Origin: an uncultured Bacilli bacterium | Lineage (GTDB): Bacteria > Bacillota_I > Bacilli_A > RF39 > UBA660 | Assembly (NCBI GenBank): GCA_947624175.1 | Contig: CANQJD010000002.1 | Coordinates: forward strand, 1,170 to 65,169 | DNA: 64,000 bases | Reading direction: 5' to 3' | Shown: positions 21,049-52,038 of the stretch, one piece after another | Layout of the letters: each line of letters opens with the position of its first letter | How positions within the stretch are numbered: position 1 is the stretch's first letter | The notes under the pieces: model-generated | Seen by the model: the letters and a program-made list of their open reading frames with translations, nothing else | Told to the model about the DNA's origin: nothing | The model's database searches: none | Made by a program: the position numbers and the translations under genes

Positions 21049-21267
21049 ATGAATAATCAAATGCCTTTTTATGGAAACTTTCCAAATAATCAAAATCCTA
21101 ATAATTATAATGAGTTAATGTTTGAAAGACTTACTAATCATTTAAATAGATTAGAAAGACAAATTAAAATGTTAGAAAATAGAATTAATCGCCTTGAAGG
21201 AGGAAATCCGACTTTTTTAAAGAATAACTATTCTGATGATGATAACAATAATATGTATATGCTTTAA
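21049..21267 (+). CDS. Small Asn-rich coiled-coil hypothetical protein
   Basis: 72-aa ORF with AGGAGG RBS. Central heptad-like LNRLERQIKMLENRINRLEG. Confidence 0.35.
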   Translation: MNNQMPFYGNFPNNQNPNNYNELMFERLTNHLNRLERQIKMLENRINRLEGGNPTFLKNNYSDDDNNNMYML

Positions 21268-21435
21268 AAATAAATAACCATAGCTGAAAAACAATAAAGC
21301 TGTTCTTCACCATAGACTGCCATCGTGGTTTGAAACTTTATATCAATTACATCAATGTCATTTTCTAAAAATTTGTTTAACTCTTTTTCTAAATCACTTT
21401 CATCTTCAAAATCAAATAATTTAACTTTCATATTC
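21264..21435 (-). CDS. Cse60-like small sporulation-associated protein
   Basis: Not in the ORF track. M(N)MKVKLFDFEDESDLEKELNKFLENDIDVIDIKFQTTMAVYGEEQLYCFSAMVIYF resembles B. subtilis Cse60 (KVKLFDEEHEKDLE...). The stop overlaps the stop of the convergent 21049..21267 ORF. Confidence 0.5.
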
Positions 21436-21464
21436 ATCACGATTTAATTATAAATATTTATAAT

Positions 21465-21496
21465 GTAAAAAAATGTCGAATCTCGACACTTTTTTT
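21465..21496 (-). terminator. Rho-independent terminator downstream of secG, bidirectional in appearance
   Basis: aaaaaaTGTCGAatcTCGACActttttttt: 6-bp stem with an A-run and a T-run on either side. Confidence 0.5.
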
Positions 21497-21711
21497 TAAA
21501 TGAATTCCATTACTAAACTAATTACAAAGAAAGCTATTCCAAGTAGTAAAGTTATTCTGCTTATTAAAAGCTCACTTCCACGTTCTTTTCTTTTATTAAA
21601 CAAATCTATTGAACCACCACTGATAATTTGACTTGCTGGTTCAGCTTTTCCACTTTGAAGTAGAACAATTATAATTAATAAAATGGATATTACTAATAAA
21701 ACTATTCGCAT
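21496..21711 (-). CDS. secG: Preprotein translocase subunit SecG
   Basis: 71 aa, two TM helices, LLQSGK...G motif typical of SecG. Confidence 0.75.
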   Translation of the reverse strand: MRIVLLVISILLIIIVLLQSGKAEPASQIISGGSIDLFNKRKERGSELLISRITLLLGIAFFVISLVMEFI

Positions 21712-21774: not shown

Positions 21775-22782
21775 TTATTTAAAAATATCAAATAAACCTT
21801 TTTTTCCTCGTCCTTGATTAGAACTTTGAACATCAATTAATCCTAGTTTTGAAAGTAAATCATTTAAAATAGGATTAACTATTCTATCATTTAAAGGTGG
21901 CAAATTAAAATAAAGACTAATACCAGCTTCTCTTGCAAAAGCATTAACATCATTTTCATTTAACAAACTGTTATTTAAAATAACTTTTTTCCCTTTTAAA
22001 GTATTAAAAGCTGCTCTATTCCCCATCATTAATTGATTTATTCTATATAAAGATGGTTCTACTAAATAAATAACATCCGTACAAAAATCCATTTTATTAC
22101 TTTCATCTAAATCAACTAAAATTATTTCCTTTTTATCCATAGAAGCAAAAAATTCGCCCATTTTGGAATTAGAAATTGAATACATATTTTTATCATTATA
22201 ATAAACAAAATCTCTTTTATTAATTTCAACAGCTACTACTTCTTTTTTATGAACTTCTTGTAAGTTCTTTTTTAACATATAAATGAGAGCCGTACTACCA
22301 GCATTTTTTGTAACATTTTTAATTCCTAAAATAATTTGACCATTATCAAGAGATATGCTTGAATCATTAAAATTATCATAAGATATTTCTTTTCTAGCTG
22401 GAGTATTTTGAACTACAAATTCTTTTACATCATCATAAGTATTACTTTTTGTAACTAATTCTTGTAAACCTTTTATATTATCCGTGAAATTATAGATATT
22501 GATACTTACCAATAATGATAAAAACTTCTTAGGAGGTGGATCATTTGGAGGTAAAAAAAGAATTAACTTTTCGGTATCAAAAGTTTTAGCTAATTTTCTT
22601 AAAACATCTTCCTTAGGAAAATTCTCAAGAGCTGTTGCATCAATTATTAATTTCTTATAAAAAATAGAATTAAAACTATTAGCAATTTCTGATACTTGAA
22701 ACACTCCGTTTAATTCTTTCATTATTTCAATATTGGCACCATATATTAAATCTTTATTTTGATTTGTAACAATTATATTCAT
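21775..22782 (-). CDS. Putative TadZ/CpaE-like pilus-assembly localisation protein with degenerate P-loop (tentative)
   Basis: Last gene of the Tad-like operon. ILGIKNVTKNAGSTALIYMLKKNL sits where a deviant Walker A (KGGxGKT) occurs in MinD/ParA-like TadZ; otherwise unassignable. Confidence 0.3.
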   Translation of the reverse strand: MNIIVTNQNKDLIYGANIEIMKELNGVFQVSEIANSFNSIFYKKLIIDATALENFPKEDVLRKLAKTFDTEKLILFLPPNDPPPKKFLSLLVSINIYNFTDNIKGLQELVTKSNTYDDVKEFVVQNTPARKEISYDNFNDSSISLDNGQIILGIKNVTKNAGSTALIYMLKKNLQEVHKKEVVAVEINKRDFVYYNDKNMYSISNSKMGEFFASMDKKEIILVDLDESNKMDFCTDVIYLVEPSLYRINQLMMGNRAAFNTLKGKKVILNNSLLNENDVNAFAREAGISLYFNLPPLNDRIVNPILNDLLSKLGLIDVQSSNQGRGKKGLFDIFK

Positions 22783-22786
22783 ATTA

Positions 22787-23206
22787 TCACCTACAAGCTT
22801 CTATCTCCGTATTTTCATCTATCATACAACCAACTCCATATAAGGCCTTTGTCTCATTCTTTATCACTAAATCTAAATCTATACCCATAAGAGGTAATTC
22901 AAAAGTTACAAAAGTTTTGATTTTATAAACTGCATCTCCATTTGCATTATTGTCATCACCAAGAGTATAACATGATAAATATATTTTATTATTATAATTT
23001 CTAGACCTTAAATTTTCACATAACTCATCTTTACTGGTTATTCTTTCAGCAATACGGCCTTCAGTACGCTCTAATTCAGTAATAACATAATTACTAGCAC
23101 GATAAGTAGCCGCATAGTTCATTATTAACCCTATAAATACAATATAAATAAAGATAAAAATTAAAATAATATAAAATAACATTGAACCACCAACGGCTTC
23201 TCTCAT
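22787..23206 (-). CDS. TadE-like pseudopilin / minor pilin candidate
   Basis: Short N-terminal polar segment, a long hydrophobic helix (LFYIILIFIFIYIVFIGLIM), then ...AATYRASNYVITE...; position and architecture match TadE/TadF-like proteins. Confidence 0.4.
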   Translation of the reverse strand: MREAVGGSMLFYIILIFIFIYIVFIGLIMNYAATYRASNYVITELERTEGRIAERITSKDELCENLRSRNYNNKIYLSCYTLGDDNNANGDAVYKIKTFVTFELPLMGIDLDLVIKNETKALYGVGCMIDENTEIEACR

Positions 23207-23224
23207 ACTAACATCTCCTTAATT

Positions 23225-23401
23225 TTATAAATCTAAATCTTTAACAATCAAAGCATGGCCTGCTTCATTTTCAAATTGACCCCATCTCTTATTAATAGCA
23301 TTTTGAATTTGTGGCCAAAATAAAGCAAATATTCCAACAATTACTCCAACAGCAATGATTGTAACTAAAGTCATACTTAATTCACCACTAGCTTCTTTCA
23401 T
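23225..23401 (-). CDS. Candidate Flp-type small pilin (58 aa)
   Basis: Not in the ORF track. GGAGAT RBS then MKEASGELSMTLVTIIAVGVIVGIFALFWPQIQNAINKRWGQFENEAGHALIVKDLDL: short charged leader ending in Gly followed by a hydrophobic helix, located between the tadC-like and tadE-like genes. The G/xxxxEY Flp motif is not canonical. Confidence 0.35.
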   Translation of the reverse strand: MKEASGELSMTLVTIIAVGVIVGIFALFWPQIQNAINKRWGQFENEAGHALIVKDLDL

Positions 23402-23482
23402 TTATAACATATCTCCTTTCTATTTTTTACATTATTAGTATAGCACTAAAATTTTTATTAATCAATCATTTTTTTGTAAATT

Positions 23483-24268
23483 TTACATATCCATCATCAT
23501 CATCATCATCGCGATGAATAGAACTAACATTGTTCCACCACCTGTAACCATAAGCATGGCTAAGGTTTTCTTTTCCATTTTATTTAATCTTTTGGCATAT
23601 TTTTGTTCTCTAGCCTTATTTTGTAAAGATGAAACACTTTTAGAAAAGACAACTAATTGTTCTTGTTTATTTTCTTGAGCTCCAATACTTAAACGATATA
23701 AAAGTCGCATCATTCTTAAAGAGTCACGAACTGGATATTGTTCAGCAAACTCTATATATGGATTAATTGAAGAATCACCAGCATCAATCTTTTGAATCAT
23801 TTCAGATAATCCATCTTTAAACATAGCTGGTGCTGTTTCAATGGATTTTGATAAAGCAACGGGAATTGTATAATGTTGAGCAAGTATTTCAATACTTTTT
23901 AAATAATATGGTAAAGTTTGATCAATTTCGGTTAAATGTTTTTTATAATATCCTTTTAAACTAGAATATTGATTTTTATAAACAACAATTATAATTATAG
24001 CACCTATTATTAAATTAATCCAAGAGAAATTAAATAATAAAATAGCAAATATTATAACAATGGCAATGATTAATTGATTGATTCTTTTTTCAAATAATTG
24101 ATTAGCATCAACTTCTCCACCATATCTTGCTTTAACTAAAAATTCATAATCTTTTTCTTTTAATAAATCAAATAAAGCTTTATTATCTTGATATAAATGT
24201 TTAGTATTAATAATTCCTCGATAACTAAGAATAAATACTAGTATTAAGATAAGAATTGCAAATTCCAT
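23483..24268 (-). CDS. TadC-like pilus assembly inner-membrane protein (T2SS-F domain)
   Basis: Roughly 260-aa protein with N-terminal TM, cytoplasmic domain and C-terminal TM pair. Second of two adjacent GspF-like genes after the CpaF ATPase gene; start overlaps the upstream gene's stop. Confidence 0.55.
   Translation of the reverse strand: MEFAILILILVFILSYRGIINTKHLYQDNKALFDLLKEKDYEFLVKARYGGEVDANQLFEKRINQLIIAIVIIFAILLFNFSWINLIIGAIIIIVVYKNQYSSLKGYYKKHLTEIDQTLPYYLKSIEILAQHYTIPVALSKSIETAPAMFKDGLSEMIQKIDAGDSSINPYIEFAEQYPVRDSLRMMRLLYRLSIGAQENKQEQLVVFSKSVSSLQNKAREQKYAKRLNKMEKKTLAMLMVTGGGTMLVLFIAMMMMMMDM
23492..23509. repeat. (CAT)6 trinucleotide repeat encoding a Met6 tail of the TadC-like protein
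   Basis: catcatcatcatcatcat read on the minus strand gives ...AMMMMMMDM* at the C-terminus of ORF 23483..24268. Confidence 0.9.
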
Positions 24269-25173
24269 TACTCAGCCCCCACATTCTCGTTATAATATTT
24301 TTCTCCTGATAGAAGAAAATAACTATTAAATAAAACTACAATATGTAAACCTATTTGCAAAATAATATTATTATTAACCATTTCAATATAGGTTTCTTTA
24401 CCAATTAACCACTGAACTAACATAACCATTAAATATAGAAGTAATCCATATTGAATAAATGATTTATGGAAGGCTTGACGATTCATTCTATCTTGGTAAA
24501 CACCTTCAACTAATTGGTCAACATCAAGTAACATATTATCAAGTACTTCAACGGTATCATGAGCACCTTCTCTCGTTACTTGAAGGAATAATTGATGCAT
24601 ATTTCTAGTCATATAGAAATCATATTTGCTATTCATATAATCAATTGATTCTCCTACATCACCATTATGATAAGCTAAATCAATCATTACTTTAACATCA
24701 GTTTTAACAGGATCTTCTAAAACACCTGAATCATATACTCCTTCTAAAGCTTTTACAAAAGATTGTGTTATTTGAAATTCCATTATCGTATTTGTAACAT
24801 AAACTTGGATTTGTTCAAAGATAAATTCACTATAAAGTCGCTTACATCTAAGATAGGCAAGATAAGGGATAAATGAAACAACTACTACAACATAGATAAC
24901 TGAAATAATAATATTATAGAAATAAAGATAAGATATAACAAAAGCAACAACTGCAAACGTAATAGTTTGGATTATATATTGCTTTTTAGTATATTCAAGT
25001 CCCATTTCTTTACATTTTTCTCTAATTACCTTAAACGAATATGGTGCATATTTATCATAAACATTTCCTAAACTTGTAGAAATGAATTTATAAAAAGATT
25101 CTCCATTGCTTTTTCGATATAAAACTATAAAGACAGCAATAAGTAAGATAATTAAAAATTCCATTTGCATCAC
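24268..25173 (-). CDS. TadB-like pilus assembly inner-membrane protein (T2SS-F domain)
   Basis: 301 aa with GspF-like topology, immediately downstream of the CpaF-like ATPase gene (4-nt gap). Confidence 0.55.
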   Translation of the reverse strand: MMQMEFLIILLIAVFIVLYRKSNGESFYKFISTSLGNVYDKYAPYSFKVIREKCKEMGLEYTKKQYIIQTITFAVVAFVISYLYFYNIIISVIYVVVVVSFIPYLAYLRCKRLYSEFIFEQIQVYVTNTIMEFQITQSFVKALEGVYDSGVLEDPVKTDVKVMIDLAYHNGDVGESIDYMNSKYDFYMTRNMHQLFLQVTREGAHDTVEVLDNMLLDVDQLVEGVYQDRMNRQAFHKSFIQYGLLLYLMVMLVQWLIGKETYIEMVNNNIILQIGLHIVVLFNSYFLLSGEKYYNENVGAE

Positions 25174-25177
25174 CTCT

Positions 25178-26524
25178 TTATAAAAATTCTTCTATTTGAT
25201 TATTTTGAGTTTGAGTAGCCCCTACTGGAACTTCTTGAGTTACGGGAGCACTTCCTATTCCACTTGCCATCGGCATAGTTGGATTAAAATTAGATAAAGT
25301 ATCTGCAACAGGAGTAGTTACAGGAGTTGGACTTGGTACAGTCTGCACATTTGGAACAGTATTCGTATCACTCTTATCTTCTTGGAAAGGAGCGATATTT
25401 TTCATATTTTGAATTTCTTTTTTACTTAAATCAACCCCTTGAGCCTCTAAATAATCAATTAAATGCTCACTCGGTGGATTAAGGATTTCCGTTCCATCAA
25501 TATTTTTTCTATAGATTGTATTTGACTCTGGTTTATTCTCTTCATTAACAAAGAATTCCGTTACTTCACATACTTCTCTTAAAAACTTACCCGTTCCTTT
25601 TTCATAACGAGCCCGAACGTGAACACCTAACTGAATATAACGATAAATGGTTGTCATGAATTGTTCAACATCAATATTACTTTCAAGTAAACTATATAAA
25701 CGATAAGGAATACTTGCAGCTTTATCAGCATGGATAGTTGATAAAATATTATGTCCTGATGAAATAGAGTTACGAACGGCACTTACAGCTTCCGCTGAAC
25801 GAACTTCGGAAAGTAATATCCATTTAGGATTTTGCCGCATACAAGCAACTAATACATCACTGTATGATGCAATATTATTGGTTTTCATTGCAACAATATC
25901 CCTCTCAGGGAAAATTGAATCTAAGTGCAACTCTAAAGTATCCTCAATTGTAATTATTTTTTCATTTTCTCTCGTATGACTTGCTAAATATTTAACAAGC
26001 TCCGTTTTACCACTACCAGTTTCTCCACTAACGATAATATTACAATGACCCCTGACACATTCAATCAAAAAGTCATGAATATCATTAGTTATATATTTTT
26101 CTTCAATTATTTTTTCTTTCTTTAATCTTATTTTAGCCGGTGTTTTCCGAAATACAGCTGCTATTCCATTTCTGGCAATTGAATCATGAATAAAGTTCAT
26201 ACGAAGTTCAGCAGATTCACTATCTAACATTGGACTTGCCATATTAAACGTTTTACCCATAATATTAGCACATTGGAAAGCAATTTTTTCCATAAGTTCA
26301 TTATTAATACCAGGATTATCAATTCGATAAACACCTTTATCAAGGGATTTTAACCATACTTGACCATTATTACTATAAGAAATATCAGTAATATTATCAT
26401 CATCTAAATAAGGTTTTAAAGCACCAAAATCGATATTTGAAAATAAGCTAGCATTAATTTCTGTATTGGTTTTATTAGGATCACTAGCTGGATTTAATTC
26501 ATAGGCATTTATAGTTGGATTCAT
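25178..26524 (-). CDS. CpaF/TadA-type secretion ATPase (VirB11 family) with Pro/Thr-rich C-terminal tail
   Basis: Walker A VSGETGSGKTEL, Asp box and His box (ILLSEVRSAEA...STIHA) of the CpaF/TadA family. A C-terminal extension of roughly 60 aa is low-complexity (TPVTTPVADT...). Confidence 0.85.
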   Translation of the reverse strand: MNPTINAYELNPASDPNKTNTEINASLFSNIDFGALKPYLDDDNITDISYSNNGQVWLKSLDKGVYRIDNPGINNELMEKIAFQCANIMGKTFNMASPMLDSESAELRMNFIHDSIARNGIAAVFRKTPAKIRLKKEKIIEEKYITNDIHDFLIECVRGHCNIIVSGETGSGKTELVKYLASHTRENEKIITIEDTLELHLDSIFPERDIVAMKTNNIASYSDVLVACMRQNPKWILLSEVRSAEAVSAVRNSISSGHNILSTIHADKAASIPYRLYSLLESNIDVEQFMTTIYRYIQLGVHVRARYEKGTGKFLREVCEVTEFFVNEENKPESNTIYRKNIDGTEILNPPSEHLIDYLEAQGVDLSKKEIQNMKNIAPFQEDKSDTNTVPNVQTVPSPTPVTTPVADTLSNFNPTMPMASGIGSAPVTQEVPVGATQTQNNQIEEFL

Positions 26525-26535
26525 ACTATCACCTA

Positions 26536-27342
26536 TTATTGTTCTGTTTCTTCTTGATTTTCTTCAGTATCTAGCTTAACATCTTCATCAATCGTTGTAG
26601 CTTTAGAATTTATATATTCTTTAATTGTTTCACTAGTTACATTAGTTTTAACTGTTTCACCATCTACTTCCAATGAAGCATTAGTTGGAACTAAAATAAT
26701 TTCAGCATTTCTGATATATTCAGCTTTTCTTAACAACATATGCATTTCATTAGTAACTTGAAAAATTATTTGACTTGGAGCTCTATCCTCAGTTGTTGAT
26801 TCAAATACATGTCTTCCACTTGAATCTTTAACAGCTAATATTTTAACATTTTCAATTAATTTACCAATCATGATTAATCCTGCATCATCTTCACCTTTAA
26901 AGTAAACATCTACATAGTTACCTGGATACATAGAATTACCATAAGTAGATCTAATATCTACATCAAAGTCATAAGCAACATATCCTTCTTCAATATCAAT
27001 CAAGAATGAATCAGGTAAATCTTCTTTTCTTACAACTTGACTTGCATAAAATAAACTACCAGCTGGAATATTAGTTTGAGAATACATACCTAATATTTGA
27101 GTATTTGCATTAGTCAAAACATTACCTTTCATAGCTGATTGAGATATTTCAAGATATCCAATCATATCACTGGTAATTTCTTTTCTTGGGTCAATGGCTT
27201 GAAGAGCATAAGGAACCCGAACTGGACTTGTTGCTTGACTTACTCTCCAGTTATAGAAAAAGTAAAGTACCAAAACTCCTAAAATAACACCAATAACTGT
27301 AACCGTATTTTTGTTGGCTAAAATTTGTTTTAATTTTTTCAT
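26536..27342 (-). CDS. CpaB/RcpC-like Flp pilus assembly protein (SAF domain)
   Basis: N-terminal TM (TVTVIGVILGVLVLYFFY) followed by a SAF-like domain; position immediately upstream of the CpaF-like ATPase gene matches cpaB. Confidence 0.65.
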   Translation of the reverse strand: MKKLKQILANKNTVTVIGVILGVLVLYFFYNWRVSQATSPVRVPYALQAIDPRKEITSDMIGYLEISQSAMKGNVLTNANTQILGMYSQTNIPAGSLFYASQVVRKEDLPDSFLIDIEEGYVAYDFDVDIRSTYGNSMYPGNYVDVYFKGEDDAGLIMIGKLIENVKILAVKDSSGRHVFESTTEDRAPSQIIFQVTNEMHMLLRKAEYIRNAEIILVPTNASLEVDGETVKTNVTSETIKEYINSKATTIDEDVKLDTEENQEETEQ

Positions 27343-27359
27343 ATTCTCCCTCTTTCTTC

Positions 27360-27950
27360 TTATTTATTATTTAATTTTTCTTCAAAGATAGCATCAACTT
27401 GGTTTCTAATATTAAAGTCACCTTCATCAAATGTTAAAGTTGTTGACTCACTTGAATTATAGGTATTATAAGTATCTATTCTTATACTTACTTTAGGTGG
27501 ATATTCAATAACATCTTGAACAGTTACTCGATAACTTTTATTATTATTTACATTCTCTGCAAATCTTCTTATAAAACTTTCTACAAATACATCAGCATTT
27601 ATTTTAACTTCACCATATAAGTCTTGGCAACTATTTTTACCATAAGTTTTATCTAAATTTTCTTGAGTGATTTGCTTATCTTTATTTTTTAATATAATCT
27701 CATAATCCTCTTTGCTATCAAACACCAATTTTCCATTATCAACTGTATATTTTCCAGGAATCGGACAAAGATAAAATCCTCCACGATATGAAGCTCTATC
27801 AATAGCATCATACATTGATGCTTCAACCGTATTTCTAATTAATGTATAATCTTGTTGATTGGTTGTTGTTATGTTACCAAAAATATTAATTAAGACAGTT
27901 CCAAATATTCCAATTATGAAAAGCATAACTGCCCACATTGCTACTTTCAA
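27360..27950 (-). CDS. Hypothetical signal-anchored protein of the Tad-like locus
   Basis: N-terminal hydrophobic helix (MWAVMLFIIGIFGTVLINIF) and a 170-aa extracytoplasmic domain. Possibly a TadG/pseudopilin-like component, but no motif support. Confidence 0.35.
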   Translation of the reverse strand: MKVAMWAVMLFIIGIFGTVLINIFGNITTTNQQDYTLIRNTVEASMYDAIDRASYRGGFYLCPIPGKYTVDNGKLVFDSKEDYEIILKNKDKQITQENLDKTYGKNSCQDLYGEVKINADVFVESFIRRFAENVNNNKSYRVTVQDVIEYPPKVSIRIDTYNTYNSSESTTLTFDEGDFNIRNQVDAIFEEKLNNK

Positions 27951-28029
27951 GTTCCACCTCCTACTATAAACAATTATATATCAATATTCAAAAGTTAGCA
28001 AGAAAATTTTTAGGTTTTTTTACTTTATT

Positions 28030-28686
28030 TTACAAATCTTCTTTTTTCTTTTTCTTCAATATAACAAAGACTACTACTCCTGCTATAATAACTCCTACTC
28101 CAATTCCTATATAAATAAATACTTTTTTATCTAATTTATTTATTATTTCATTAATATTAGGATTTAAATACTCTTCAAATTCTTTATCAATATCTTCAAA
28201 CTCTACATTATCAGTATCCATAAATTCTTTGCAATATTTAAATTCTTTATTATCATTACATTTTTCTTTATTGAAATAATAATAATCATTTACTTTAGGT
28301 AATTCAATGCTTACTGTTCTTAATATTTCATCAGTACATAAATTAGTTGTATAAGAATATATTTTAAAAGTAATTTTATCACCATCAGCTAAATTATTTA
28401 TTTCTTTAGTATCAGATTTTATTGTTCCTTCTTCTTCATATTTACTTGTATATTCAATTCGTAAATCAGAATTAAAATTTATTATTTCAACTTTATAATT
28501 TACTTCAACACTTTTATTATCTTCATCAACATAACCTATTTCATAACTAGGTTTAAACTCAACATTTTTGGCTAGTTCTTTTAATCTCTCCATTTCACTA
28601 TTAGTACATGCTTCATAAGCATCTACCTTTAAAGAAGTAAATAGGAATAACAAAATCGTTAGTAAACAAATTTTCAGATATTTCAT
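28030..28686 (-). CDS. Cys-containing type I membrane protein (paralog b; 218 aa)
   Basis: Signal peptide (...SLKVDA), 5 conserved Cys, C-terminal TM (IYIGIGVGVIIAGVVVFVIL) followed by KKKKKEDL. About 45-50% identical to 33648..34304. Its start overlaps the stop of the 808-aa VWA protein gene by 4 nt. Confidence 0.5.
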   Translation of the reverse strand: MKYLKICLLTILLFLFTSLKVDAYEACTNSEMERLKELAKNVEFKPSYEIGYVDEDNKSVEVNYKVEIINFNSDLRIEYTSKYEEEGTIKSDTKEINNLADGDKITFKIYSYTTNLCTDEILRTVSIELPKVNDYYYFNKEKCNDNKEFKYCKEFMDTDNVEFEDIDKEFEEYLNPNINEIINKLDKKVFIYIGIGVGVIIAGVVVFVILKKKKKEDL

Positions 28687-31109
28687 CCTGCCACCTCATC
28701 TTTAAATTTAGCACTATAAAACCATCTACGACCACTAGTAACATCTTCCCCTTGACCATTTCTAGTAAATTCACATATAAATCGGTTGTTATCAGTAAAA
28801 TGACAATTTCTTCCTAAATAACTATTTTTAGTATCTTCATTTGTATCTTTTTTAATGTTATTGATATTAGTTTTACTTAATAAATACTCATATTCTGCTT
28901 CTTTAGAATCACTCCAAGTATTCTCATCGATTATCTTTTCAAAATCAAATCTTGTATTTAAATAATTACTACCTACTCCCCGATTTATATCATATTTTTT
29001 TAAGAATGGATCAGTTAATTCTATTTGTCTATAATTAATATTACTTAATTTATCTTCTCCATTAAACTCACATTCAAGTTTATCATCACTACCATTTTTC
29101 TTAAGTTCAATATCAAGATCTCCATTATAACCAGCATTAGATACTTTTATAGTTATATAACCACTATTTTCTTTTAATTTAGTATAAGCATTATTACCAC
29201 CTAATATCTGATTATTAGATTCATTACTACAGCTTTCTTGGTCTCCTGTTTGCATATTTAAACAACTTTCTTTTATTTGCATTTCTTTACTAAAACTTGC
29301 ATAACAAGTAGTTGAAGTAGTTCTATTTACCCCATTAATTTTTTCTGTTTTATTAGTAGTACATTTAATATTACTAGTATTTACTTTTTCTTTTACATTT
29401 TCATAACTAAACTTATCTGGAGAAGATTTACTATTGTTATAAGTTATTTTTAATTCAGCACCTTGATCTTCAAATCTTTTAGCATAATTTTTTAAATCTT
29501 CTTGAGTATTAAAGTTTAAATAATTTTGTAAAACTGAATTAAGTTTTTCTAATTTTTTAGCAGCACTTACTTGTTCTTTCAAATCTTCAGATTTTAATCC
29601 TTTCTCTGCTTCATTATATTTTTCATTAAATATTGTCGTATTAAATTTATAAGTACAGACAACATTAGTACTCATTTTTAATGAAGATGGGAAACCTGTA
29701 CCAGCTAAAATATTAAATTTTCTTACTCCAACATCTAAATTATTAACTATAGCTTCGGTTGTAAAACCATTTTTGTTAACTCCATTTTCCATATAACCTT
29801 CACGACAACTTTTAGTAAAGATTTGATTTTCATCACTTTCATCTTCTCTAACAGTACCAGCTGTTGATGAACCATGACATGTATGTAAATTTAAATCATA
29901 TGGTATCCAATAAACTTCTGGATTTACATCAACACCTATTGTTTTTTCATTACCTTCTTCATCAGTATAAGTTAAATTAAAGTTTTCATTGGTCTCATGC
30001 CAACCTCCACCATCACTTTCATTACCTTTAGCATATTGATTAATCTCAATTTCAAAACTTGGAGAAGTCCAACCTGATTCGGTTAATCTACCAACATTAA
30101 ATCTTTGATAATCACCAACATCATCAGTTAAATAGAAATCATCTCCTATTCTATCAGTTAAATCTGTAGTAAATGATGTACTACCTTCTTCAACATTTTC
30201 TTTTATTTGTTCAGCTATTTTTTGAAATAATGTATTTAAATCACCACTTGCATCATTATATATAGTAACTAATTGTTGCATCATTTTAGTATCACAAGTT
30301 TTATAAGTGCTTCCACTACTACAACCAGCATTCCGACAAGCACTATTCCAAGTAAGTTTACTACCTAAAGAACTTCCATCATATCTAATTCCATAAATAC
30401 TAACCCCCATATTTTTTAAACTTTTTGCTCTGCTTTTAGCTGTTCCAGGATTAGTATCATTAGGAGACCAATATCTTCCATCTCCAAAAATAACTACAAA
30501 TTTCTTTTCATCACCTTTTGGAAAGTTAACTTGTCCTAAAGCTTTATCTATATATGATTTATGTCCTCCTAAATTATTGTATCCTCTAAAGCCAACTTTA
30601 TCAAAGTTAGAATTCTTAAAGCCATTAGTTACATCATAAGAATTAGTTGCAAATTGAATAAGTTTTAGATAATAATTAGAACTTCCATTCTCATTACTTG
30701 GGATTAATGTTCGTGCAAAAGTCTGAGCAGCTGATTGAACAGTTGATATTTTACTTTTAATTGTTTTAGAATAATCTAATACCAAAGCTATATAAGCTTT
30801 TTCAGCTGACTTTTTTTGAGATACATTTTTACCTTTAATATTAAACTTTACATAATAATGCCCTAATTCATCTAACTTTTTAGTTACAGTTTTAGTTATT
30901 TGAATATCTCCATTTTTTTCTAAACTACCATATACTAAATCTACTTTTGTAACTACTCCTTGATTATTTTTAGTTTCATAACATTTTACATTAGATGGTA
31001 AATTCAAAGGACATCTTAAATCTCCTCTTTCATATTTAGTTTCAGCTTTAACAGGTATACTTATTAATATTAAAACTATTAATATAATTAATTTTACTTG
31101 TTTTTTCAT
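28683..31109 (-). CDS. Large secreted VWA-domain protein (808 aa), Cys-rich C-terminal region
   Basis: Signal peptide (...IPVKAETKY), VWA domain with MIDAS-like LVLDYSKT and FVVIFGDGRY motifs, long Cys-containing C-terminal region, no LPXTG and no C-terminal TM. Paralog of 31128..33638. Confidence 0.7.
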   Translation of the reverse strand: MKKQVKLIILIVLILISIPVKAETKYERGDLRCPLNLPSNVKCYETKNNQGVVTKVDLVYGSLEKNGDIQITKTVTKKLDELGHYYVKFNIKGKNVSQKKSAEKAYIALVLDYSKTIKSKISTVQSAAQTFARTLIPSNENGSSNYYLKLIQFATNSYDVTNGFKNSNFDKVGFRGYNNLGGHKSYIDKALGQVNFPKGDEKKFVVIFGDGRYWSPNDTNPGTAKSRAKSLKNMGVSIYGIRYDGSSLGSKLTWNSACRNAGCSSGSTYKTCDTKMMQQLVTIYNDASGDLNTLFQKIAEQIKENVEEGSTSFTTDLTDRIGDDFYLTDDVGDYQRFNVGRLTESGWTSPSFEIEINQYAKGNESDGGGWHETNENFNLTYTDEEGNEKTIGVDVNPEVYWIPYDLNLHTCHGSSTAGTVREDESDENQIFTKSCREGYMENGVNKNGFTTEAIVNNLDVGVRKFNILAGTGFPSSLKMSTNVVCTYKFNTTIFNEKYNEAEKGLKSEDLKEQVSAAKKLEKLNSVLQNYLNFNTQEDLKNYAKRFEDQGAELKITYNNSKSSPDKFSYENVKEKVNTSNIKCTTNKTEKINGVNRTTSTTCYASFSKEMQIKESCLNMQTGDQESCSNESNNQILGGNNAYTKLKENSGYITIKVSNAGYNGDLDIELKKNGSDDKLECEFNGEDKLSNINYRQIELTDPFLKKYDINRGVGSNYLNTRFDFEKIIDENTWSDSKEAEYEYLLSKTNINNIKKDTNEDTKNSYLGRNCHFTDNNRFICEFTRNGQGEDVTSGRRWFYSAKFKDEVAG

Positions 31110-31127
31110 TATTCACTCCTTATAATC

Positions 31128-33638
31128 TTAATTTGATTCTGGAAATTTAGCATTTGTAAACCATTGTCCTTCATTAACTCCATTTTCTATTTTATTTCTT
31201 GTAAAACTACATTGATATTCATTAGAATCTGTAAAATAACAATTTTTACCTAAATAACTATTTTTGGTATCTTCAGCAGTATCTTTTATTATTTTTTCTA
31301 TATTAACTTTGCTAATAAAATAATCGTATTCCATCGCTTGAGAATTAGCCCAAGTATCTTCATGAATTATCTTTTGAAAATCAAAGGTTTTATTTAAGTA
31401 ATTTCTTCCTACTCCTCGATTTATATCATAATTTTTTAAGAATGGATCAGCTAACTCTATTTGTCTAAACATTATATCTCCCATTCCGTTATTATTGGCC
31501 GTAAAGGAACAACCATCATTTTCATTAGTCTTCTTTAAATGAAAATCTAAATTACCACGATAACCTGCTTTTAATACATCAACATTAATTTCCCCACCAT
31601 TAGCTTTCATTTTTATATAAAATTTATGGTTTCCATCTAGTTGAGCTTTTTCAGCTGAACAAGGTTCTTGTTCTCCCGTTTGCATACTTAAACAAGTTTT
31701 AGGTAATTCCATACTTTTAGAAAGTGAAACATAGCAAGTTTTATCCGTAGCTATTGAACTACCATTTACGTTACTTGTAGCTTTAGTAGTACAATTAATT
31801 GATGTTTTGACATTATCTGTATTTACAAAATTAATTTCTTCTGAATCATTTATATTTTTATAAGTAACTTTTAAAACAGCTGGTTGATCTATAAAACGAT
31901 TCTTATAATTTTCTAAATCATTATTTTGAGATAACATTTTATAATTTTCTAATATATCATCATATTTTTGTAGTTGAACTGTTAGTCCCGCTGCTTCTTT
32001 ACTTTCAGGTTCTGCTTGATTTAAAGCTCTAACTATTCGTTGATATTCTTTATTAAATTTTTCATTATCAAATTTATAACGGCATATCATATTAGTACTT
32101 ATGTCAATAGCACTTGGAAAACCTAAACCTGATAATAAATCAAACTTAGTTACACCATCATTTTGATTGTTTATTTTAACGGCTACTCTATAACCATTTT
32201 TATAATTTCCTTTTTCATCATTATATCCTTCATAGCAAATTCTTGAATAGAATGAATATTCATCACTATCATCTCCACCTCTTATGGTATCAGCTGTTTT
32301 ACTATCAGAACAAGATTCTAGAGTTGTACTATTAGGAATCCAATATACTTCTGGATTATCTTTTATAGTAAATGTTTTTAGTTCTCCATCTTCAGCTGTA
32401 TAATTTAAAGTAAAGTTTTCATTAGTTTTATGCCAAAATTCTTCCAAACCATCTGCCATTCCAGCTTTTGGATCAGCATAAGGATCTATTTCTATTTCAA
32501 AAACAGGACTTACATATCCTTTTTCATCAATAGTAGGAATATCAAATCTTTTATATCTTCCTGATTCATCAGTTAAATAAAACTCATCACCTATTTTATC
32601 ACTTATACCACCTGTAACTGTTGATGAATTATAATACAAATCATCTTTTATAGCTTGTAATATCTGATTAAACTCAGTAGTATAATTATTTTTATCAGCT
32701 GCATCAGCAAAAATAGGAGCAACCTTTTTCATATATATTAAATCGCAAGCCCGATAACTTTTTCCTCGACAATCTACAACATAATTATTCTTACTATTTA
32801 CATTACCACCATAATTTTTCGTAGCACCATTATAATGAACTCCAAATCTAGTAACATCTAATGCATCAAAAAGATCTAAATAATGTTCAACAGAATTATT
32901 ACCATGTTTTGACTTTCTCCATCTAGTTGTACAATTATTTTTATTTCCTCCATTACCTTCACCATTACAAGTACTACTAGGATAATCTAAATAATATCTT
33001 CCATCTCCAAAAACTACTATATATTTTTTTCCTTCAACTGATTTTATCATATCATATGCTTTGCTTAACCCTTTTTCAAGATGGGAAGATAAACCGAAAT
33101 CACCACTTGCACTAGTAATAGGAGAATTCATTAAATTTCTACTTTTTTTTGCAGATGATGCGAATTGAACAAGTCCAACATAAAAATTATCATTATCTTG
33201 GGTTAAACTTTTTGAAAAGCTTTTAATTGCTGAAACAGCTGCACTTTTATTAGACATAGTTTTAGATTTATCAAAGACAATTACAACATTTACTCGCCCA
33301 TTTATTGCCTTTTGTTGAGAAACATTACTACCATTAAGTTTAAACTGAACAGTATAATGTCCTAAAGTATCAGTCTTTTTAACAATTTTAGTAAGTTCAA
33401 AGTGTCCACCATCACTTAATGTCTCATTATAAGTTATATCAACTTCAACAACTTTTCCATTTTCAGAAATTGCATTACAATGAACTTTTTCACCATTGCT
33501 TATATGTTGAGGACATCTTAAATCTCCTTTTTGATATTCTGTCTCATCAGCTTTTATATCTTTATTATTCAATAAAACAATTAAACTTATAGGTATAATA
33601 ATTATTAATAATTTAATTGCTTTTTTTAATATCTTCAT
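31128..33638 (-). CDS. Large secreted VWA-domain protein (836 aa), paralog of 28683..31109
   Basis: Signal peptide (...DIKADETEY), VWA motifs VVIVFDKSKT and YIVVFGDGRY, conserved C-terminal block (QIEL.DPFLK.YDINRGVG.NYLN...). Confidence 0.7.
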   Translation of the reverse strand: MKILKKAIKLLIIIIPISLIVLLNNKDIKADETEYQKGDLRCPQHISNGEKVHCNAISENGKVVEVDITYNETLSDGGHFELTKIVKKTDTLGHYTVQFKLNGSNVSQQKAINGRVNVVIVFDKSKTMSNKSAAVSAIKSFSKSLTQDNDNFYVGLVQFASSAKKSRNLMNSPITSASGDFGLSSHLEKGLSKAYDMIKSVEGKKYIVVFGDGRYYLDYPSSTCNGEGNGGNKNNCTTRWRKSKHGNNSVEHYLDLFDALDVTRFGVHYNGATKNYGGNVNSKNNYVVDCRGKSYRACDLIYMKKVAPIFADAADKNNYTTEFNQILQAIKDDLYYNSSTVTGGISDKIGDEFYLTDESGRYKRFDIPTIDEKGYVSPVFEIEIDPYADPKAGMADGLEEFWHKTNENFTLNYTAEDGELKTFTIKDNPEVYWIPNSTTLESCSDSKTADTIRGGDDSDEYSFYSRICYEGYNDEKGNYKNGYRVAVKINNQNDGVTKFDLLSGLGFPSAIDISTNMICRYKFDNEKFNKEYQRIVRALNQAEPESKEAAGLTVQLQKYDDILENYKMLSQNNDLENYKNRFIDQPAVLKVTYKNINDSEEINFVNTDNVKTSINCTTKATSNVNGSSIATDKTCYVSLSKSMELPKTCLSMQTGEQEPCSAEKAQLDGNHKFYIKMKANGGEINVDVLKAGYRGNLDFHLKKTNENDGCSFTANNNGMGDIMFRQIELADPFLKNYDINRGVGRNYLNKTFDFQKIIHEDTWANSQAMEYDYFISKVNIEKIIKDTAEDTKNSYLGKNCYFTDSNEYQCSFTRNKIENGVNEGQWFTNAKFPESN

Positions 33639-33647
33639 GAACTCCTC

Positions 33648-34304
33648 CTAAAAATCATCAGTTTTCTTTTTTCTTTTTACAATTAAAACTATAATGGTAA
33701 TTAATACAACAATTCCTACTAATCCACCAATTATATACCATAATAAATTATTAGTAATTTTTGAAGTTATACTATCTTCTTTTAAATACTCATCAAATTC
33801 TTTATCTATTTCTTTAAAGTCTATATCTTCAACGTTCATAAATTCTTTACAATATTCAAAATCTGGATTAGCATCACATTTTTCTTTGTTAAAATAATAA
33901 TAATCATTATAACTTGGAAAATTTACTGTATAAGTTTTTAATAACCTTTCTGTACATAAGTTATTAGTATAAGAATAAATTTTAAAGTCTACTTTACTAT
34001 TTTCTGAAAAAATATCTTCAAATTCAGAAGTTGAAGTTAATTCAATTGGATCAGATTCTGAATCTAATTGATAAATAATTTTTAAATCTGGATCAAAATT
34101 AATAAATTTAGCACTATACTCAAGATATAAACTTTTATTTTCATCATCAACATCCATTTCATAACTTGTTTGAATTTTAAAGTTTTTAGCTAATTCTCTT
34201 AATCTTTCCATTTCAGTATTAGTACAAGATTGTATAGCATTAACCTGTAAGTTTACTAAAAAAGTAATTATAAATAATAACCCTAAATATATTTTTCTTT
34301 TCAT
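33648..34304 (-). CDS. Cys-containing type I membrane protein (paralog a; 218 aa)
   Basis: Signal peptide (...NLQVNA), conserved Cys pattern shared with paralog b, C-terminal TM (YIIGGLVGIVVLITIIVLIV) plus KRKKKTDDF. First gene of the operon. Confidence 0.5.
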   Translation of the reverse strand: MKRKIYLGLLFIITFLVNLQVNAIQSCTNTEMERLRELAKNFKIQTSYEMDVDDENKSLYLEYSAKFINFDPDLKIIYQLDSESDPIELTSTSEFEDIFSENSKVDFKIYSYTNNLCTERLLKTYTVNFPSYNDYYYFNKEKCDANPDFEYCKEFMNVEDIDFKEIDKEFDEYLKEDSITSKITNNLLWYIIGGLVGIVVLITIIVLIVKRKKKTDDF

Positions 34305-34327
34305 AATCCTCCTTATTATCTATAAAA

Positions 34328-34356
34328 ATTATAACAAAAATTTTTTTTATTTACAA
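34328..34356 (-). promoter_or_regulatory. Candidate sigma-A promoter of the VWA/Tad-like operon
   Basis: Minus strand reads TTGTAA - 16 nt - TGtTATAAT (extended -10), followed by AGGAGG and the MKRKIY start at 34304. Confidence 0.4.
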
Positions 34357-34395
34357 TATCTTTTACTTATGTTATTATATTTTTTGAGGTGTTTT

Positions 34396-34788
34396 ATGAA
34401 AAAATTTATATTAGTAATTACAATTTTACTATTAACTTGTGCTTGTTCTAATAGTCTTAAAAGTATTAAAATTGATAATTTAGAAAAAAAATTAAATAAT
34501 AAGGAAAGTTTTGTATTATGTTTAATTAATGATGAAGAGGAAGGATTAACTTTGAAAAAAACTTTAGGAAAAGTTATTAAAGATAAAAAAATAGATTCAT
34601 TTTTTATCAATACAGACAAATTAAACGATAATGATGAAGAAAAACTTGAAAATTTATTTACTTATGAAGATTCTAATATTATTATCTTTATAAAGAAAGG
34701 TCAAGAAAATTCGGTTTTATCAAGAATAACTGATCCTTTTATAAATGAAAAAGACTTACAGAAAGAATTAGAAGAACAAGGATACTAA
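34396..34788 (+). CDS. Hypothetical lipoprotein
   Basis: Start taken at MKKFILVITILLLTCACSNS (lipobox LLTC-A-C) within the longer track ORF 34369..34788; GAGGTG RBS. Confidence 0.5.
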   Translation: MKKFILVITILLLTCACSNSLKSIKIDNLEKKLNNKESFVLCLINDEEEGLTLKKTLGKVIKDKKIDSFFINTDKLNDNDEEKLENLFTYEDSNIIIFIKKGQENSVLSRITDPFINEKDLQKELEEQGY

Positions 34789-34791
34789 AAG

Positions 34792-34830
34792 AGACTATCA
34801 AGAAGTTATATATTTCTTGATAGTCTTTTT
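34792..34830. terminator. Bidirectional rho-independent terminator between the lipoprotein gene and dnaJ
   Basis: Perfect 13-bp stem AGACTATCAAGAA / TTCTTGATAGTCT with a 9-nt loop, flanked by an A-run and a T-run. Confidence 0.65.
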
Positions 34831-48135: not shown

Positions 48136-48645
48136 CTATTCACCTGTATCCCAAAAATAATCGGCATATTTTTCACATTCACTTTTAGTAAGATTAACTT
48201 CATTACCATTTGCATCCCAGCATTTTCCTTTAACTGAACTATTATTTACACCATCAATTAAACTTCCACTAGTATTTCCTGACTTATCCCAACAAGCAAA
48301 GAAAGCTGTGAATGCTGTCGTTCCTTCATCAATTTTAACAATGCTATTAACAGTATTCATAATGATTTTTAAAAGTGGTACAATCAAGAAAATAATTAAT
48401 GCATAAATTAATCTTCTTATTGAATTCTTTTTAGCTTTACTAACTTCTTTTTCATCTCCATTAGTCATAGCTTTGAACATATCAATTGCACATAATATAA
48501 TAAGTACAGCAGGCACTCCAAATTGAATAATTGTAAATACAGCCTTAACAATTGATACAACAAGCATGATTAATGTATCCTCAGCACATAAATCATTAAT
48601 ATCTACTAAAGTTTGAACTAAATTCATTATAATTCCTCCCAACAC
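48136..48645 (-). CDS. Small two-TM membrane protein with conserved Cys motifs (paralog 1; 169 aa)
   Basis: Shares ...P.(V)LI.LC..D.FK... / K..V.........I...P (second helix) / CWD with the adjacent 109-aa ORF. Confidence 0.4.
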   Translation of the reverse strand: MLGGIIMNLVQTLVDINDLCAEDTLIMLVVSIVKAVFTIIQFGVPAVLIILCAIDMFKAMTNGDEKEVSKAKKNSIRRLIYALIIFLIVPLLKIIMNTVNSIVKIDEGTTAFTAFFACWDKSGNTSGSLIDGVNNSSVKGKCWDANGNEVNLTKSECEKYADYFWDTGE

Positions 48646-48704
48646 AAACTTCTATAACTTTATAATACTAAATTATTGAAAATAAATCAAGTCTTTTTCG
48701 TATT

Positions 48705-49034
48705 TTAGTTATTTTTTTTACTATTCTCGACATAATCCCAACATTCTTTCCACTCATCACTATAACCAAAAGGAATAATACTATTAGCAAGTCTAAAGAA
48801 CATTGGTATTAAAAATGGTAATAAATATATAATAATTGCATAAACAATTTTCATAACTACTTCTTTACGTAATTTCTTAATTTCATCTTCTTTTTTAGAT
48901 ACAATTATCTTAAATATATCAACTGTACATAAAACAATTAATAAAATTGGGATAATAAATCTAATTAAATCAAACAATGAAACAATTATACCAAAAAATA
49001 ATTGCATATCCGAATTACACATACTCCTCACCAC
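48705..49034 (-). CDS. Small two-TM membrane protein with conserved Cys motifs (paralog 2; 109 aa)
   Basis: FIIPILLIVLCTVDIFKII ... ECWDYV; paralog of 48136..48645. Confidence 0.4.
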   Translation of the reverse strand: MVRSMCNSDMQLFFGIIVSLFDLIRFIIPILLIVLCTVDIFKIIVSKKEDEIKKLRKEVVMKIVYAIIIYLLPFLIPMFFRLANSIIPFGYSDEWKECWDYVENSKKNN

Positions 49035-49717: not shown

Positions 49718-50203
49718 TTATTCACTTACTTCTAAATTTTTCTTAACTTTCTTATCTTCTTTTTTATCATTTAAGTAACCTTTAATCATTAACATAACAT
49801 TACTAAATGACAATAAGTAAAGCATTACTTTAAGAGGTGCAATTTGATCTGTAAAATAAGTAAAGTTAATATCATATTTATAACGATGCCACATAAGCAT
49901 ATTTTTATCAAGAATTGACCTATAACAGAAGACTGCAATTGTCATGATTACCATAAAAGATACTATATTATAGAATAAATTATTTCTTACTTCATCTTGC
50001 CTTAAGAAAGTATTAACTAGTAATAAGATTATTAATATTATATATGGTAAGATAACTCCTAAAAATTCAAAGAAATTAGCACCAAATGGTTCTTTTTCTA
50101 GTCTTTGAAACATCATCATAACAATATAAATAGTTGCAACTAACAAGAATGGTAATACTAAATTTTTAATATAATAAAACATTTTATTTAATATCTTTGT
50201 CAT
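49718..50203 (-). CDS. Hypothetical 4-TM membrane protein
   Basis: 161 aa, four predicted hydrophobic helices, Lys-rich tail. Overlaps the upstream gene by 1 nt. Confidence 0.4.
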   Translation of the reverse strand: MTKILNKMFYYIKNLVLPFLLVATIYIVMMMFQRLEKEPFGANFFEFLGVILPYIILIILLLVNTFLRQDEVRNNLFYNIVSFMVIMTIAVFCYRSILDKNMLMWHRYKYDINFTYFTDQIAPLKVMLYLLSFSNVMLMIKGYLNDKKEDKKVKKNLEVSE

Positions 50204-52034: not shown

Positions 52035-52038
52035 ACTA

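Follow-up and report, generated by a model that had tools for sequence, protein, structure and literature searches.

What is the function of an operon in which genes recalling those for Tad/Flp pili stand together with genes for very large secreted proteins? The operon in question occupies positions 21775-34304, on the minus strand, of a 64,000-nucleotide stretch of contig CANQJD010000002.1 (assembly GCA_947624175.1) from an uncultured Bacilli bacterium; this whole stretch is called the window below. A first-pass annotation had described it as twelve genes joining a Tad-like core to two giant secreted VWA proteins and paired type I membrane proteins, and had proposed a dedicated apparatus for secreting or displaying the giants. 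We incline, with moderate confidence, to the view that the operon specifies the filament machine of a monoderm cell, divergent but Tad-like (type IVc-like), along with a module for its cargo or tip. This view builds on the observed gene content, homologies, synteny, folds and gradient of divergence among relatives. From anatomy, synteny, divergence gradient and fold we infer that a filament would be formed, that the giants would lie at its tip, that they would interact with the 218-aa membrane proteins and that they would bind a target; secretion or display of the giants by the machine, as first proposed, would be a further step of the same kind.

The twelve-gene operon is real. All twelve open reading frames (ORFs) lie on the minus strand, run in the same direction and are tightly packed, with intergenic spacings of 9, 18, -4, 79, 17, 11, 4, -1, 81, 18 and 4 nt, and they are bordered by a terminator at 34788-34830 and by secG, whose start is 63 nt past the last operon gene. 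The gene arrangement first described was thus reproduced, including the two gaps of about 80 nt.

Pfam and NCBIfam models were run on all ORFs. The 448-aa product of 25178..26524 (-) belongs to the CpaF/TadA/VirB11 family of secretion ATPases (T2SSE, PF00437, 1.9e-27), and the 268-aa product of 26536..27342 (-) is a CpaB/RcpC-like SAF-domain protein (SAF 9.6e-5, 23.3 bits with a cut-off of 21; RcpC 2.4e-6, 27.9 bits with a cut-off of 28.8; TIGR03177 3.9e-11). Two elements of a Tad system, the T2SSE-superfamily ATPase and the CpaB/RcpC SAF-domain protein, are therefore present, and these family models bear out the corresponding calls of the first-pass annotation. The best NCBIfam scores of the ATPase were 119.7 bits for VirB11, 105 for TrbB and 99.9 for the TadA family, all under the cut-offs, so that its subfamily is ambiguous. 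Its C-terminal tail (25178-25330) is of low complexity, rich in Pro, Thr and Val, and of variable length, the whole protein ranging from 360 to 866 aa among relatives. Upstream of the CpaB-like gene, 27360..27950 (-) encodes a 196-aa protein with an N-terminal transmembrane (TM) helix as anchor, which matches Pfam DUF5411 (PF17424) at 8.3e-37 and 126.6 bits, against a cut-off of 30. None of the models matched the 301-, 261-, 139-, 335-, 218- and 808-aa proteins.

Two of these unmatched proteins are polytopic membrane proteins encoded directly after the ATPase, of 301 aa (24268..25173, -) and 261 aa (23483..24268, -), which we compared by hhalign with proteins of the Tad loci of Photobacterium, Pseudosulfitobacter, Ralstonia and Sphingobium plasmids; the T2SSF domains of the Sphingobium TadB/TadC pair were verified by Pfam. 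The 301-aa family, enriched with distant homologs, aligned colinearly over 209 columns with proteobacterial TadB (probability 86%, E 4.7e-6), and the 261-aa family aligned with TadB plus TadC (probability 85%, E 6.8e-6). The two families matched each other over their full length at 96%, compared with 98% for the reference TadB against TadC, and the control comparison with TadZ gave 0.1%. No T2SSF (PF00482) match was found in the two window proteins, nor in ten distant full-length homologs of the 301-aa protein obtained by phmmer against 1.84 billion representatives, and searches of PDB profiles with the two family alignments gave nothing relevant, apart from one chance match (E 1.8) for one family. 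These results support, but do not conclusively establish, that the two proteins are remote homologs of TadB and TadC, probably platform subunits, and paralogous to each other. The TadB and TadC calls made earlier therefore keep their footing in the hhalign matches (85-87%, E about 5e-6), and not in recognition by Pfam, NCBIfam or PDB profiles. Family searches on the genes at 23483..27342 had been suggested as a check on their membership in the T2SSF, CpaF and CpaB families; they were run, and the outcome is not a refutation.

At least 581 relatives of the ATPase were found in species-representative genomes. Records of the best 80, at 62-87% identity, bear the labels of uncultured gut Bacilli, Tenericutes, Mollicutes, Clostridia or Clostridium sp., with a few other bins such as Muribaculaceae; a Clostridium sp. 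(CAG:914) and a circular 1.26-Mb metagenome-assembled genome are among the relatives. We compared 80 loci with 10-kb flanks by ORF calling and phmmer. In nearly all of them the core follows one order: DUF5411, CpaB, ATPase, 301-aa and 261-aa proteins, one or two pilins, one or two 139-aa proteins and the 335-aa protein; the chromosomal flanks differ even among close relatives. Among the 66 informative loci, those with at least 7 kb of upstream DNA, the DUF5411 gene precedes the CpaB or ATPase gene in 61. Median identity to the window falls from 72% for the ATPase through 63% (301-aa protein), 54% (261-aa protein), 48% (pilin), 44% (CpaB) and 38% (335-aa protein) to about 28% for the DUF5411, 139-aa and 218-aa proteins, and the giants are mostly undetectable by BLASTP. 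In genomes whose ATPases are 83-87% identical, the giants are 25-55% and the 218-aa proteins 35-55% identical, and the two sets of identities correlate (r = 0.64, with one reciprocal-best pair). The motor is conserved while the giants and their 218-aa partners diverge fast.

The filament itself would involve two small proteins. The 58-aa product of 23225..23401 (-) has the size of an Flp pilin, and its leader, MKEASG, runs into a hydrophobic helix; in its family (77 homologs) the N-terminus MKEA[TSA]GE[LVA][NS]MT is near-invariant and precedes about 20 hydrophobic residues. By size, leader and helix this protein is pilin-like. The 139-aa product of 22787..23206 (-), a putative minor pilin, starts with MREAVG and a hydrophobic helix; its family, present in one or two copies per locus, shows M[RK]E[AS]xG[GS] and then a helix similar to that of the 58-aa pilin. 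From these conserved N-termini we deduce a common six-residue, class-III-like leader, M[KR]E[AS]xG. The Pfam TadE and Tad models did not match the 139-aa window protein and gave one weak match among 72 pilin-family members; the Flp1_like match of the 58-aa ORF is weak (0.008), and three of the 72 match that model. The last gene of the operon, 21775..22782 (-), encodes a 335-aa protein whose family of 1809 homologs includes no annotated member among the 120 best listed. Against a set of AAA ATPases from Tad loci this family gave a colinear hhalign match (E 1e-3, probability 21%), with the P-loop lysine missing, and the protein may be a TadZ/CpaE-like member of the ParA/MinD fold with a degenerate P-loop. 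The earlier calls of a pilin, a TadE-like and a TadZ-like protein thus rest on architecture and weak profile matches. In several lineages (e.g. L021, L030, L033, L044 and L055) the pilin is duplicated with a Cys-rich C-terminal extension (CC...C...C), unlike the window pilin, which is short and Cys-free.

Upstream of the core lie the genes for the two giants, of 836 aa (31128..33638, -) and 808 aa (28683..31109, -), which are paralogs at 41% identity. Both begin with a Sec-type signal peptide, in which a hydrophobic stretch separates MKILKK... from IKA/DET, and have no M[KR]E[AS]xG leader, carry a DxSxT motif and many Cys, and end in ...KFPESN and ...KDEVAG with neither a TM anchor nor LPXTG; no sortase was found among the operon genes. 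This agrees with the first description of secreted, Cys-rich proteins that lack a sortase signal. A VWA domain is recognised by Pfam in the 836-aa protein (VWA_2, 8.9e-7); the 808-aa protein, with no Pfam VWA match of its own, can be called a VWA protein through its paralogy and the shared DxSxT motif, so that the description of two VWA giants holds directly for the first only. An AF2 model of the 836-aa protein, built from seven sequences (mean pLDDT 66.5), confidently predicts a beta-sandwich (50-103), a VWA domain (115-335) in which DxSxT would form the MIDAS motif, and beta-rich domains with a helical hairpin (342-700). The best structural matches of this model are the pilus-tip adhesins Mfa5, SpaC, PitA, RrgA and GBS104, at 12-18% identity, and PilB, a predicted likeness that favours the original suggestion of VWA tip adhesins. 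Conservation in the giant family is highest not in the binding head but in a C-terminal module of about 120 aa, which reads YRxIxLxxPFP...GRxPGxNW...Y.I.LTP..I..IR.YN...C...C.S.F. In one relative (L015) the N-terminus of the giant carries a thioester domain (1.5e-8) instead, and the family pattern appears to be that of a variable head on a constant tail.

The giants are accompanied by two 218-aa proteins, encoded at 33648..34304 (-, copy a) and 28030..28686 (-, copy b), both type I membrane proteins; copy a has a signal peptide, an FN3-like ectodomain with four conserved Cys, a TM helix and a KKKK tail. The fold of copy a was taken from the model of its paralog, by which the protein is predicted to be an FN3-like type I membrane protein. 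A direct search found few giants (six matches); with iterated HMMs the giants were united in about 63 loci, the corresponding figure for the 218-aa family being 65, and a 218-aa-family gene directly precedes the giant in 58 of 74 cases. The upstream DNA of the 66 informative loci holds both families in 49, a 218-aa gene with a large unrecognised ORF in eight, a giant only in one, and neither in eight. The first-pass annotation would have been put in doubt if these families never lay beside Tad genes elsewhere; their presence together at 49 of the 66 loci leaves it unrefuted. Pairs are amplified together, with one copy in L003, two in the window, L004, L009, L011 and L012, and three in L002, always on the operon strand and 1.2-2 kb upstream of the ATPase. 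The order in relatives is 218-giant-218-giant and that of the window 218a-836-808-218b, so the second window pair is inverted. Separately, L038 (3467-5062) and 20 other loci of one subclade have, immediately upstream of the 218-aa gene, a conserved gene for a polytopic membrane protein (about 535 aa, no Pfam match) that is absent from the window. A further side observation concerns L072 (1-10000), where a triplet of 218-aa gene, giant and DUF5411 gene is duplicated in tandem, which hints that DUF5411 is functionally part of the adhesin module.

The module includes one gene on the opposite strand. At 34369..34788 (+), with a probable ATG start at 34397 (MKKFILVITILLLTCAC), lies a gene for a lipoprotein of a thioredoxin-fold family, and in about 30 loci a lipoprotein gene stands upstream of the operon in divergent orientation. 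Relatives of the lipoprotein match Pfam Thioredoxin (7e-9), and most have the CxxC and the cis-Pro intact; this divergent CxxC protein fits the Cys-rich exported parts of the module. The window copy has no Pfam match, and in its clade LINDE-EEG and SNI stand in place of the CxxC and the cis-Pro, a replacement which suggests that it is a redox-dead copy.

Assembled into a mechanism, these parts would act as follows. The CpaF/VirB11-family ATPase would drive a platform of the two paralogous TadB/TadC-like membrane proteins, on a base completed by the CpaB-like SAF protein and perhaps by the 335-aa degenerate ParA/MinD-like protein. A prepilin peptidase with its gene at another locus would cleave both pilins after the Gly of M[KR]E[AS]xG; the 58-aa pilin would then polymerise into the filament, which would be primed or capped by the 139-aa pilin-like protein, with a possible part for the membrane-anchored DUF5411 protein. 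The giants would be Sec-exported non-pilin adhesins, following the logic of PilY1 with a fold like that of SpaC and Mfa5. Their variable N-terminal head (VWA here, a thioester domain in one relative) would contact the target, and the conserved C-terminal module would dock the giant to the machine or to the filament tip, where the 139-aa and DUF5411 proteins would be the likely receivers. Each cognate FN3-like membrane protein would hold, chaperone or anchor its giant at the membrane.

Several points weigh against this mechanism. The core occurs with neither a giant nor a 218-aa gene adjacent in L005 (1-8400), L014, L027, L031, L043, L054, L056 and L081; in the closest relative, L005, mutL-miaA-htpG-hsp20 abut the DUF5411 gene. 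(In L027, L043 and L054 DUF5411 is missing too.) The proposed platform is tied to TadB and TadC through remote profile matches only. The window pilin continues after MKEASG with ELSMT and has no EY, so the Flp motif G/XXXXEY is not found, and the Pfam Flp and TadE models are essentially blind to the 72 members of the putative pilin family. The 335-aa protein as a TadZ-like component is a weak lead: it has no Pfam, NCBIfam or PDB-profile match, and Pfam on 33 family members also gave essentially nothing. The docking of the giants is pure inference, since residues 714-835 of the 836-aa protein, the C-terminal module, are not confidently modelled (pLDDT below 50) and a PDB profile search with this module matched nothing solved. 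Finally, a prepilin peptidase (A24, TadV/CpaA) was found neither in the window nor in the 80 loci with their 10-kb flanks, whether by the GxGD.K motif or by phmmer with the Photobacterium TadV; the lack of TadV reported for the window is thereby borne out, and the enzyme could be encoded outside the regions searched.

The main rival takes the operon as the contact or attachment half of a larger conjugation-type apparatus, a monoderm type IV secretion system (T4SS), in which the filament and the giant would bring about the cell-cell contact needed by a VirB4/VirB6 channel. The layout would be that of the tra region of pAW63 and pXO2, and the apparatus, now chromosomal in this gut clade, may have been co-opted. 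What recommends it is first the neighbourhood of the operon in relatives, where small T4SS_pilin-like genes with two TM helices directly follow the 335-aa gene in all 30 informative loci, and VirB6-like (TrbL_4), TcpE/VirB3-like and VirB4-like genes come next in 19-22 of the 30 (e.g. L026:15219-21332 and L038:15463-21131). The VirB11 and TrbB models that head the NCBIfam scores of the ATPase point the same way, as does the relaxase-less T4SS with VirB2-like arrays in Patescibacteria (PMC12102498). Bacillus plasmids supply the third line of support. The conjugative B. thuringiensis plasmid pCH_183-e and pAW63 both carry a surface protein of about 1416 aa, small genes (one of them DUF5411-like), 'VirB11', proteins of 278 and 250 aa, further small genes, TrbC/VirB2, a 643-aa membrane protein and then VirD4. 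The best plasmid matches of the ATPase are Bacillus loci; among the others of these, a B. halotolerans plasmid has, in order, a thioester-domain protein, a DUF5411-like protein, the ATPase, 267- and 245-aa proteins and small genes, and B. cereus pJ51_1 has CpaB, an AAA ATPase, CpaF, 310- and 288-aa proteins and three tiny pilins. HMMs of the window families matched Bacillus plasmid proteins at 2.7e-42 for CpaB (an annotated B. cereus CpaB), 4e-11 for the 301-aa, 3e-7 for the 261-aa (the second membrane gene of a B. thuringiensis plasmid) and 2.6e-4 for the 139-aa family, and at about 1e-5 for DUF5411 against the gene before the ATPase. Such matches to the neighbours of CpaF in annotated Tad-like loci of Bacillus also speak for the Tad-like reading of the core. 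Neither the T4SS-like neighbours in relatives nor the plasmid module figured in the first-pass annotation. The HMMs of the giants, the 218-aa proteins and the C-terminal module gave no matches in these plasmid loci, and the plasmid giants are therefore analogous in position only.

In the window and its closest clade, by contrast, no VirB4 or VirB6 gene lies beside the operon, and tblastn with the relatives' copies found none anywhere in the 64 kb; by this search the window gave no sign of a monoderm conjugative T4SS of the MPF-FATA-like type. The window does contain two T4SS_pilin-like genes with two TM helices, for proteins of 109 and 169 aa, at 48136..49034 (-), beside ppdK and about 14 kb from the operon; they are orthologs of those that follow the operon in relatives. 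No relaxase, coupling protein or integrase was seen, and the T4SS-like loci of relatives showed no relaxase within their flanks. The GC content of the operon equals that of its flanks, the conservation of the ATPase over at least 581 genomes looks vertical, and adjacency in reduced genomes may be mere synteny. This conjugation-type reading seems doubtful to us, but it is compatible with a Tad-like filament machine and does not exclude it. By analogy with the type IV pili plus T4SS of epibiotic Patescibacteria, one could go further and imagine a single contact-dependent apparatus, fixed in the chromosome and composed of the Tad-like operon, the arrays of VirB2-like genes and the VirB4/VirB6 genes that stand next to it in relatives with no relaxase. 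Gut Bacilli of reduced genome would use it to attach to host or bacterial cells and to trade or take up material, the rapidly diversifying giant/218-aa pairs being target-specificity determinants loaded onto the filament by an undescribed membrane-receptor mechanism; we regard this as rather unlikely. As a separate candidate, the operon as a mobile element was rejected for the window: its GC equals that of the flanks (22-34% throughout the window), it holds neither integrase nor relaxase, and the core is conserved clade-wide.

A more modest reading makes the giants ordinary adhesins of the cell body, held by the 218-aa proteins and co-regulated with an independent Tad-like pilus to which they have no physical link. 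The Sec-type signal peptides, the lack of a pilin module and of LPXTG, the 1:1 amplification with a membrane-anchored partner and the eight of 66 loci in which the core lacks adjacent giants would all suit it. We nevertheless judge it distinctly unlikely: even very divergent lineages keep the giants on the same strand and directly ahead of DUF5411/CpaB, the arrangement of giant, DUF5411 and ATPase recurs in Bacillus plasmids that have no 218-aa homolog, and the part of the giants that is best conserved is the C-terminal module rather than the head that would bind. Very improbable, lastly, is a pseudopilus piston like that of type II secretion systems (T2SS) pushing Sec-exported giants through the envelope, which corresponds to the dedicated secretion apparatus of the first-pass annotation. 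Although the type IV filament superfamily includes secretion systems and the giants are large, Cys-rich and anchorless and the pilins very short, no Tad-type system of a monoderm is known to secrete Sec substrates, a partner tethered to the membrane suggests that the giants are kept and not released, and the structural kin of the giants are tip adhesins.

The borders and signals of the operon complete the picture of the locus. The intrinsic terminator at 34788..34830, between dnaJ (-) and the lipoprotein gene (+), has a 19-bp perfect stem with an A-run on one side and a T-run on the other (dG -23.4 kcal/mol, z = -6.1, with none of 200 shuffles folding equally well). It ends both dnaJ and the lipoprotein gene and shields the operon from upstream transcription, in agreement with the bidirectional terminator first noted at this place. 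The promoter proposed for the operon, a sigma-70-type TTGTAA-17-TATAAT with an upstream TG at 34328..34356 (-), is indeed present, but promoter-like sites are not commoner in this 26%-GC DNA than in shuffles (110 versus 104.9 +/- 10.6), and because of this it is a candidate only. Two similar sites lie in the wider gaps: a candidate internal promoter ahead of the core machine genes (TTGCTA-17-TATAAT, 27973..28001, -) in the 79-nt gap, and TTGATT-17-TATACT with an upstream TG (23437..23465, -) in the 81-nt gap, which may serve the pilin gene. Downstream, secG (21496..21711, -; Pfam SecG 1.9e-17) is the last co-directional gene before a hairpin and T-run at about 21474-21488; it is not linked to the operon in relatives and is a housekeeping passenger.

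Other features of the window were noted in passing. Just past secG, at 21264-21440 (-), lies a homolog of the sporulation protein Cse60 (3e-17), which one would not expect in an organism from a lineage that has a reduced genome and does not sporulate, if this is one. Another large candidate adhesin, a surface protein of 1857 aa with MBG_2 repeats and a Laminin_G_3 domain, is encoded at 12201-17774 (-). Directly upstream of the two T4SS_pilin-like genes of the window, there is a run of small secreted or membrane ORFs at 49718-52755 (-), one of which (51423-52034; weak Peptidase_S26, 0.0058) encodes a type I signal peptidase like SipW; the run may be a separate TasA-like fibre or secretion cluster.

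The clade that carries the operon is a large, uncultured, small-genome part of animal and human gut microbiomes. A conserved motor (the best 80 of at least 581 relatives at 62-87%), combined with near-complete replacement of the adhesins from one close relative to the next, marks a central organelle of contact with a host or partner. The comparison gives a context to DUF5411 and to four unannotated families, the 218-aa, giant, 301/261-aa and 335-aa proteins, and links these families to the unexplained 'VirB11' module of pXO2/pAW63-type conjugative plasmids. It also suggests a model of adhesin loading, with a Sec-exported tip adhesin and a cognate membrane partner, that would differ from those of PilY1 and of TadG/CpaL.

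How, then, does the operon compare with known systems? Loci for Tad pili in monoderms are exemplified by Bifidobacterium breve, Eubacterium rectale and the pJ51_1 locus of B. cereus. With Tad/Flp (type IVc) systems the operon shares, in this order, CpaB, a CpaF-family ATPase, two paralogous proteins that are probably TadB/TadC-like, tiny pilins and putative pseudopilin-like proteins and, with the monoderm versions, the lack of a secretin, as expected for a monoderm, and a peptidase that would be encoded elsewhere. It differs from them in that its platform proteins, pilins and TadZ-like protein fall outside the curated family models, in the six-residue leader M[KR]E[AS]xG without a G/XXXXEY motif, and in its extras: DUF5411, the Sec-exported giant with its FN3-like membrane partner, and the divergent thioredoxin-fold lipoprotein. 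A different Tad-like cluster has been described in TANB77 (PMC11680825). Operons with CpaF, a PilC-like protein, DUF5411 and an internalin-like protein have been predicted in Roseburia, Ruminococcus and Eubacterium as 'secretion-related' (PMC9523054); in these gut Firmicutes, as in the window operon, DUF5411 goes with an ATPase of the CpaF type, a platform protein and a protein resembling adhesins, but the operons belong to another lineage with another type of adhesin, and no paired membrane protein was described. The VirB11 module of the tra regions of pAW63, pXO2 and pBT9727 (CDS16-26; PMC1196294) has the same order of giant, DUF5411-like protein, CpaF/VirB11 ATPase, two membrane proteins of about 250-280 aa and small proteins, continued by TrbC/VirB2-like and VirB6-like genes. 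Unlike the window operon, it is plasmid-borne with VirD4 and a relaxase, it has no 218-aa homolog, CpaB or 335-aa protein, and its giants are not detectably homologous to those of the window.

For the giants, the closest parallels are tip adhesins. As in PilY1/PilC of type IVa pili, they are large, Sec-exported non-pilins whose VWA domain is N-terminal and whose C-terminal part is conserved, encoded beside minor pilins, and the C-terminal part of PilY1 docks onto minor pilins; they differ in having no PilY1/PilC beta-propeller (no Pfam match) and another C-terminal module, of about 120 aa, and in a host machine that is Tad-like and not type IVa. VWA or modular tips are known on Tad pili from TadG, CpaL of Caulobacter and Kil/KilN-type proteins, and with PilY1 and S. 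sanguinis PilB these are precedents which overturn the initial impression that VWA partners are not standard for Tad loci (PMC12607857, PMC12075869). The TadG/CpaL/KilN-type proteins share with the giants VWA or other variable domains at Tad pilus tips, in paralogous, interchangeable sets, but they are themselves pilins that begin with a prepilin leader and a pilin module, whereas the giants have a classical signal peptide and no pilin module or prepilin leader fused to the VWA domain. From SpaC, RrgA, PitA, GBS104 and Mfa5 the giants are set apart by the lack of LPXTG, of a sortase at the locus and of type V lipoprotein processing, and by an unrelated assembly pathway. Strict tests for Flp pilins, TadV, PilY1, TadG/CpaL and sortase-pilus adhesins were negative, yet the mode of action is plausibly that of a Tad pilus with a tip adhesin. 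What is distinctive here is that the giants carry a Sec-type instead of a prepilin leader and are each matched with a cognate type I membrane protein.

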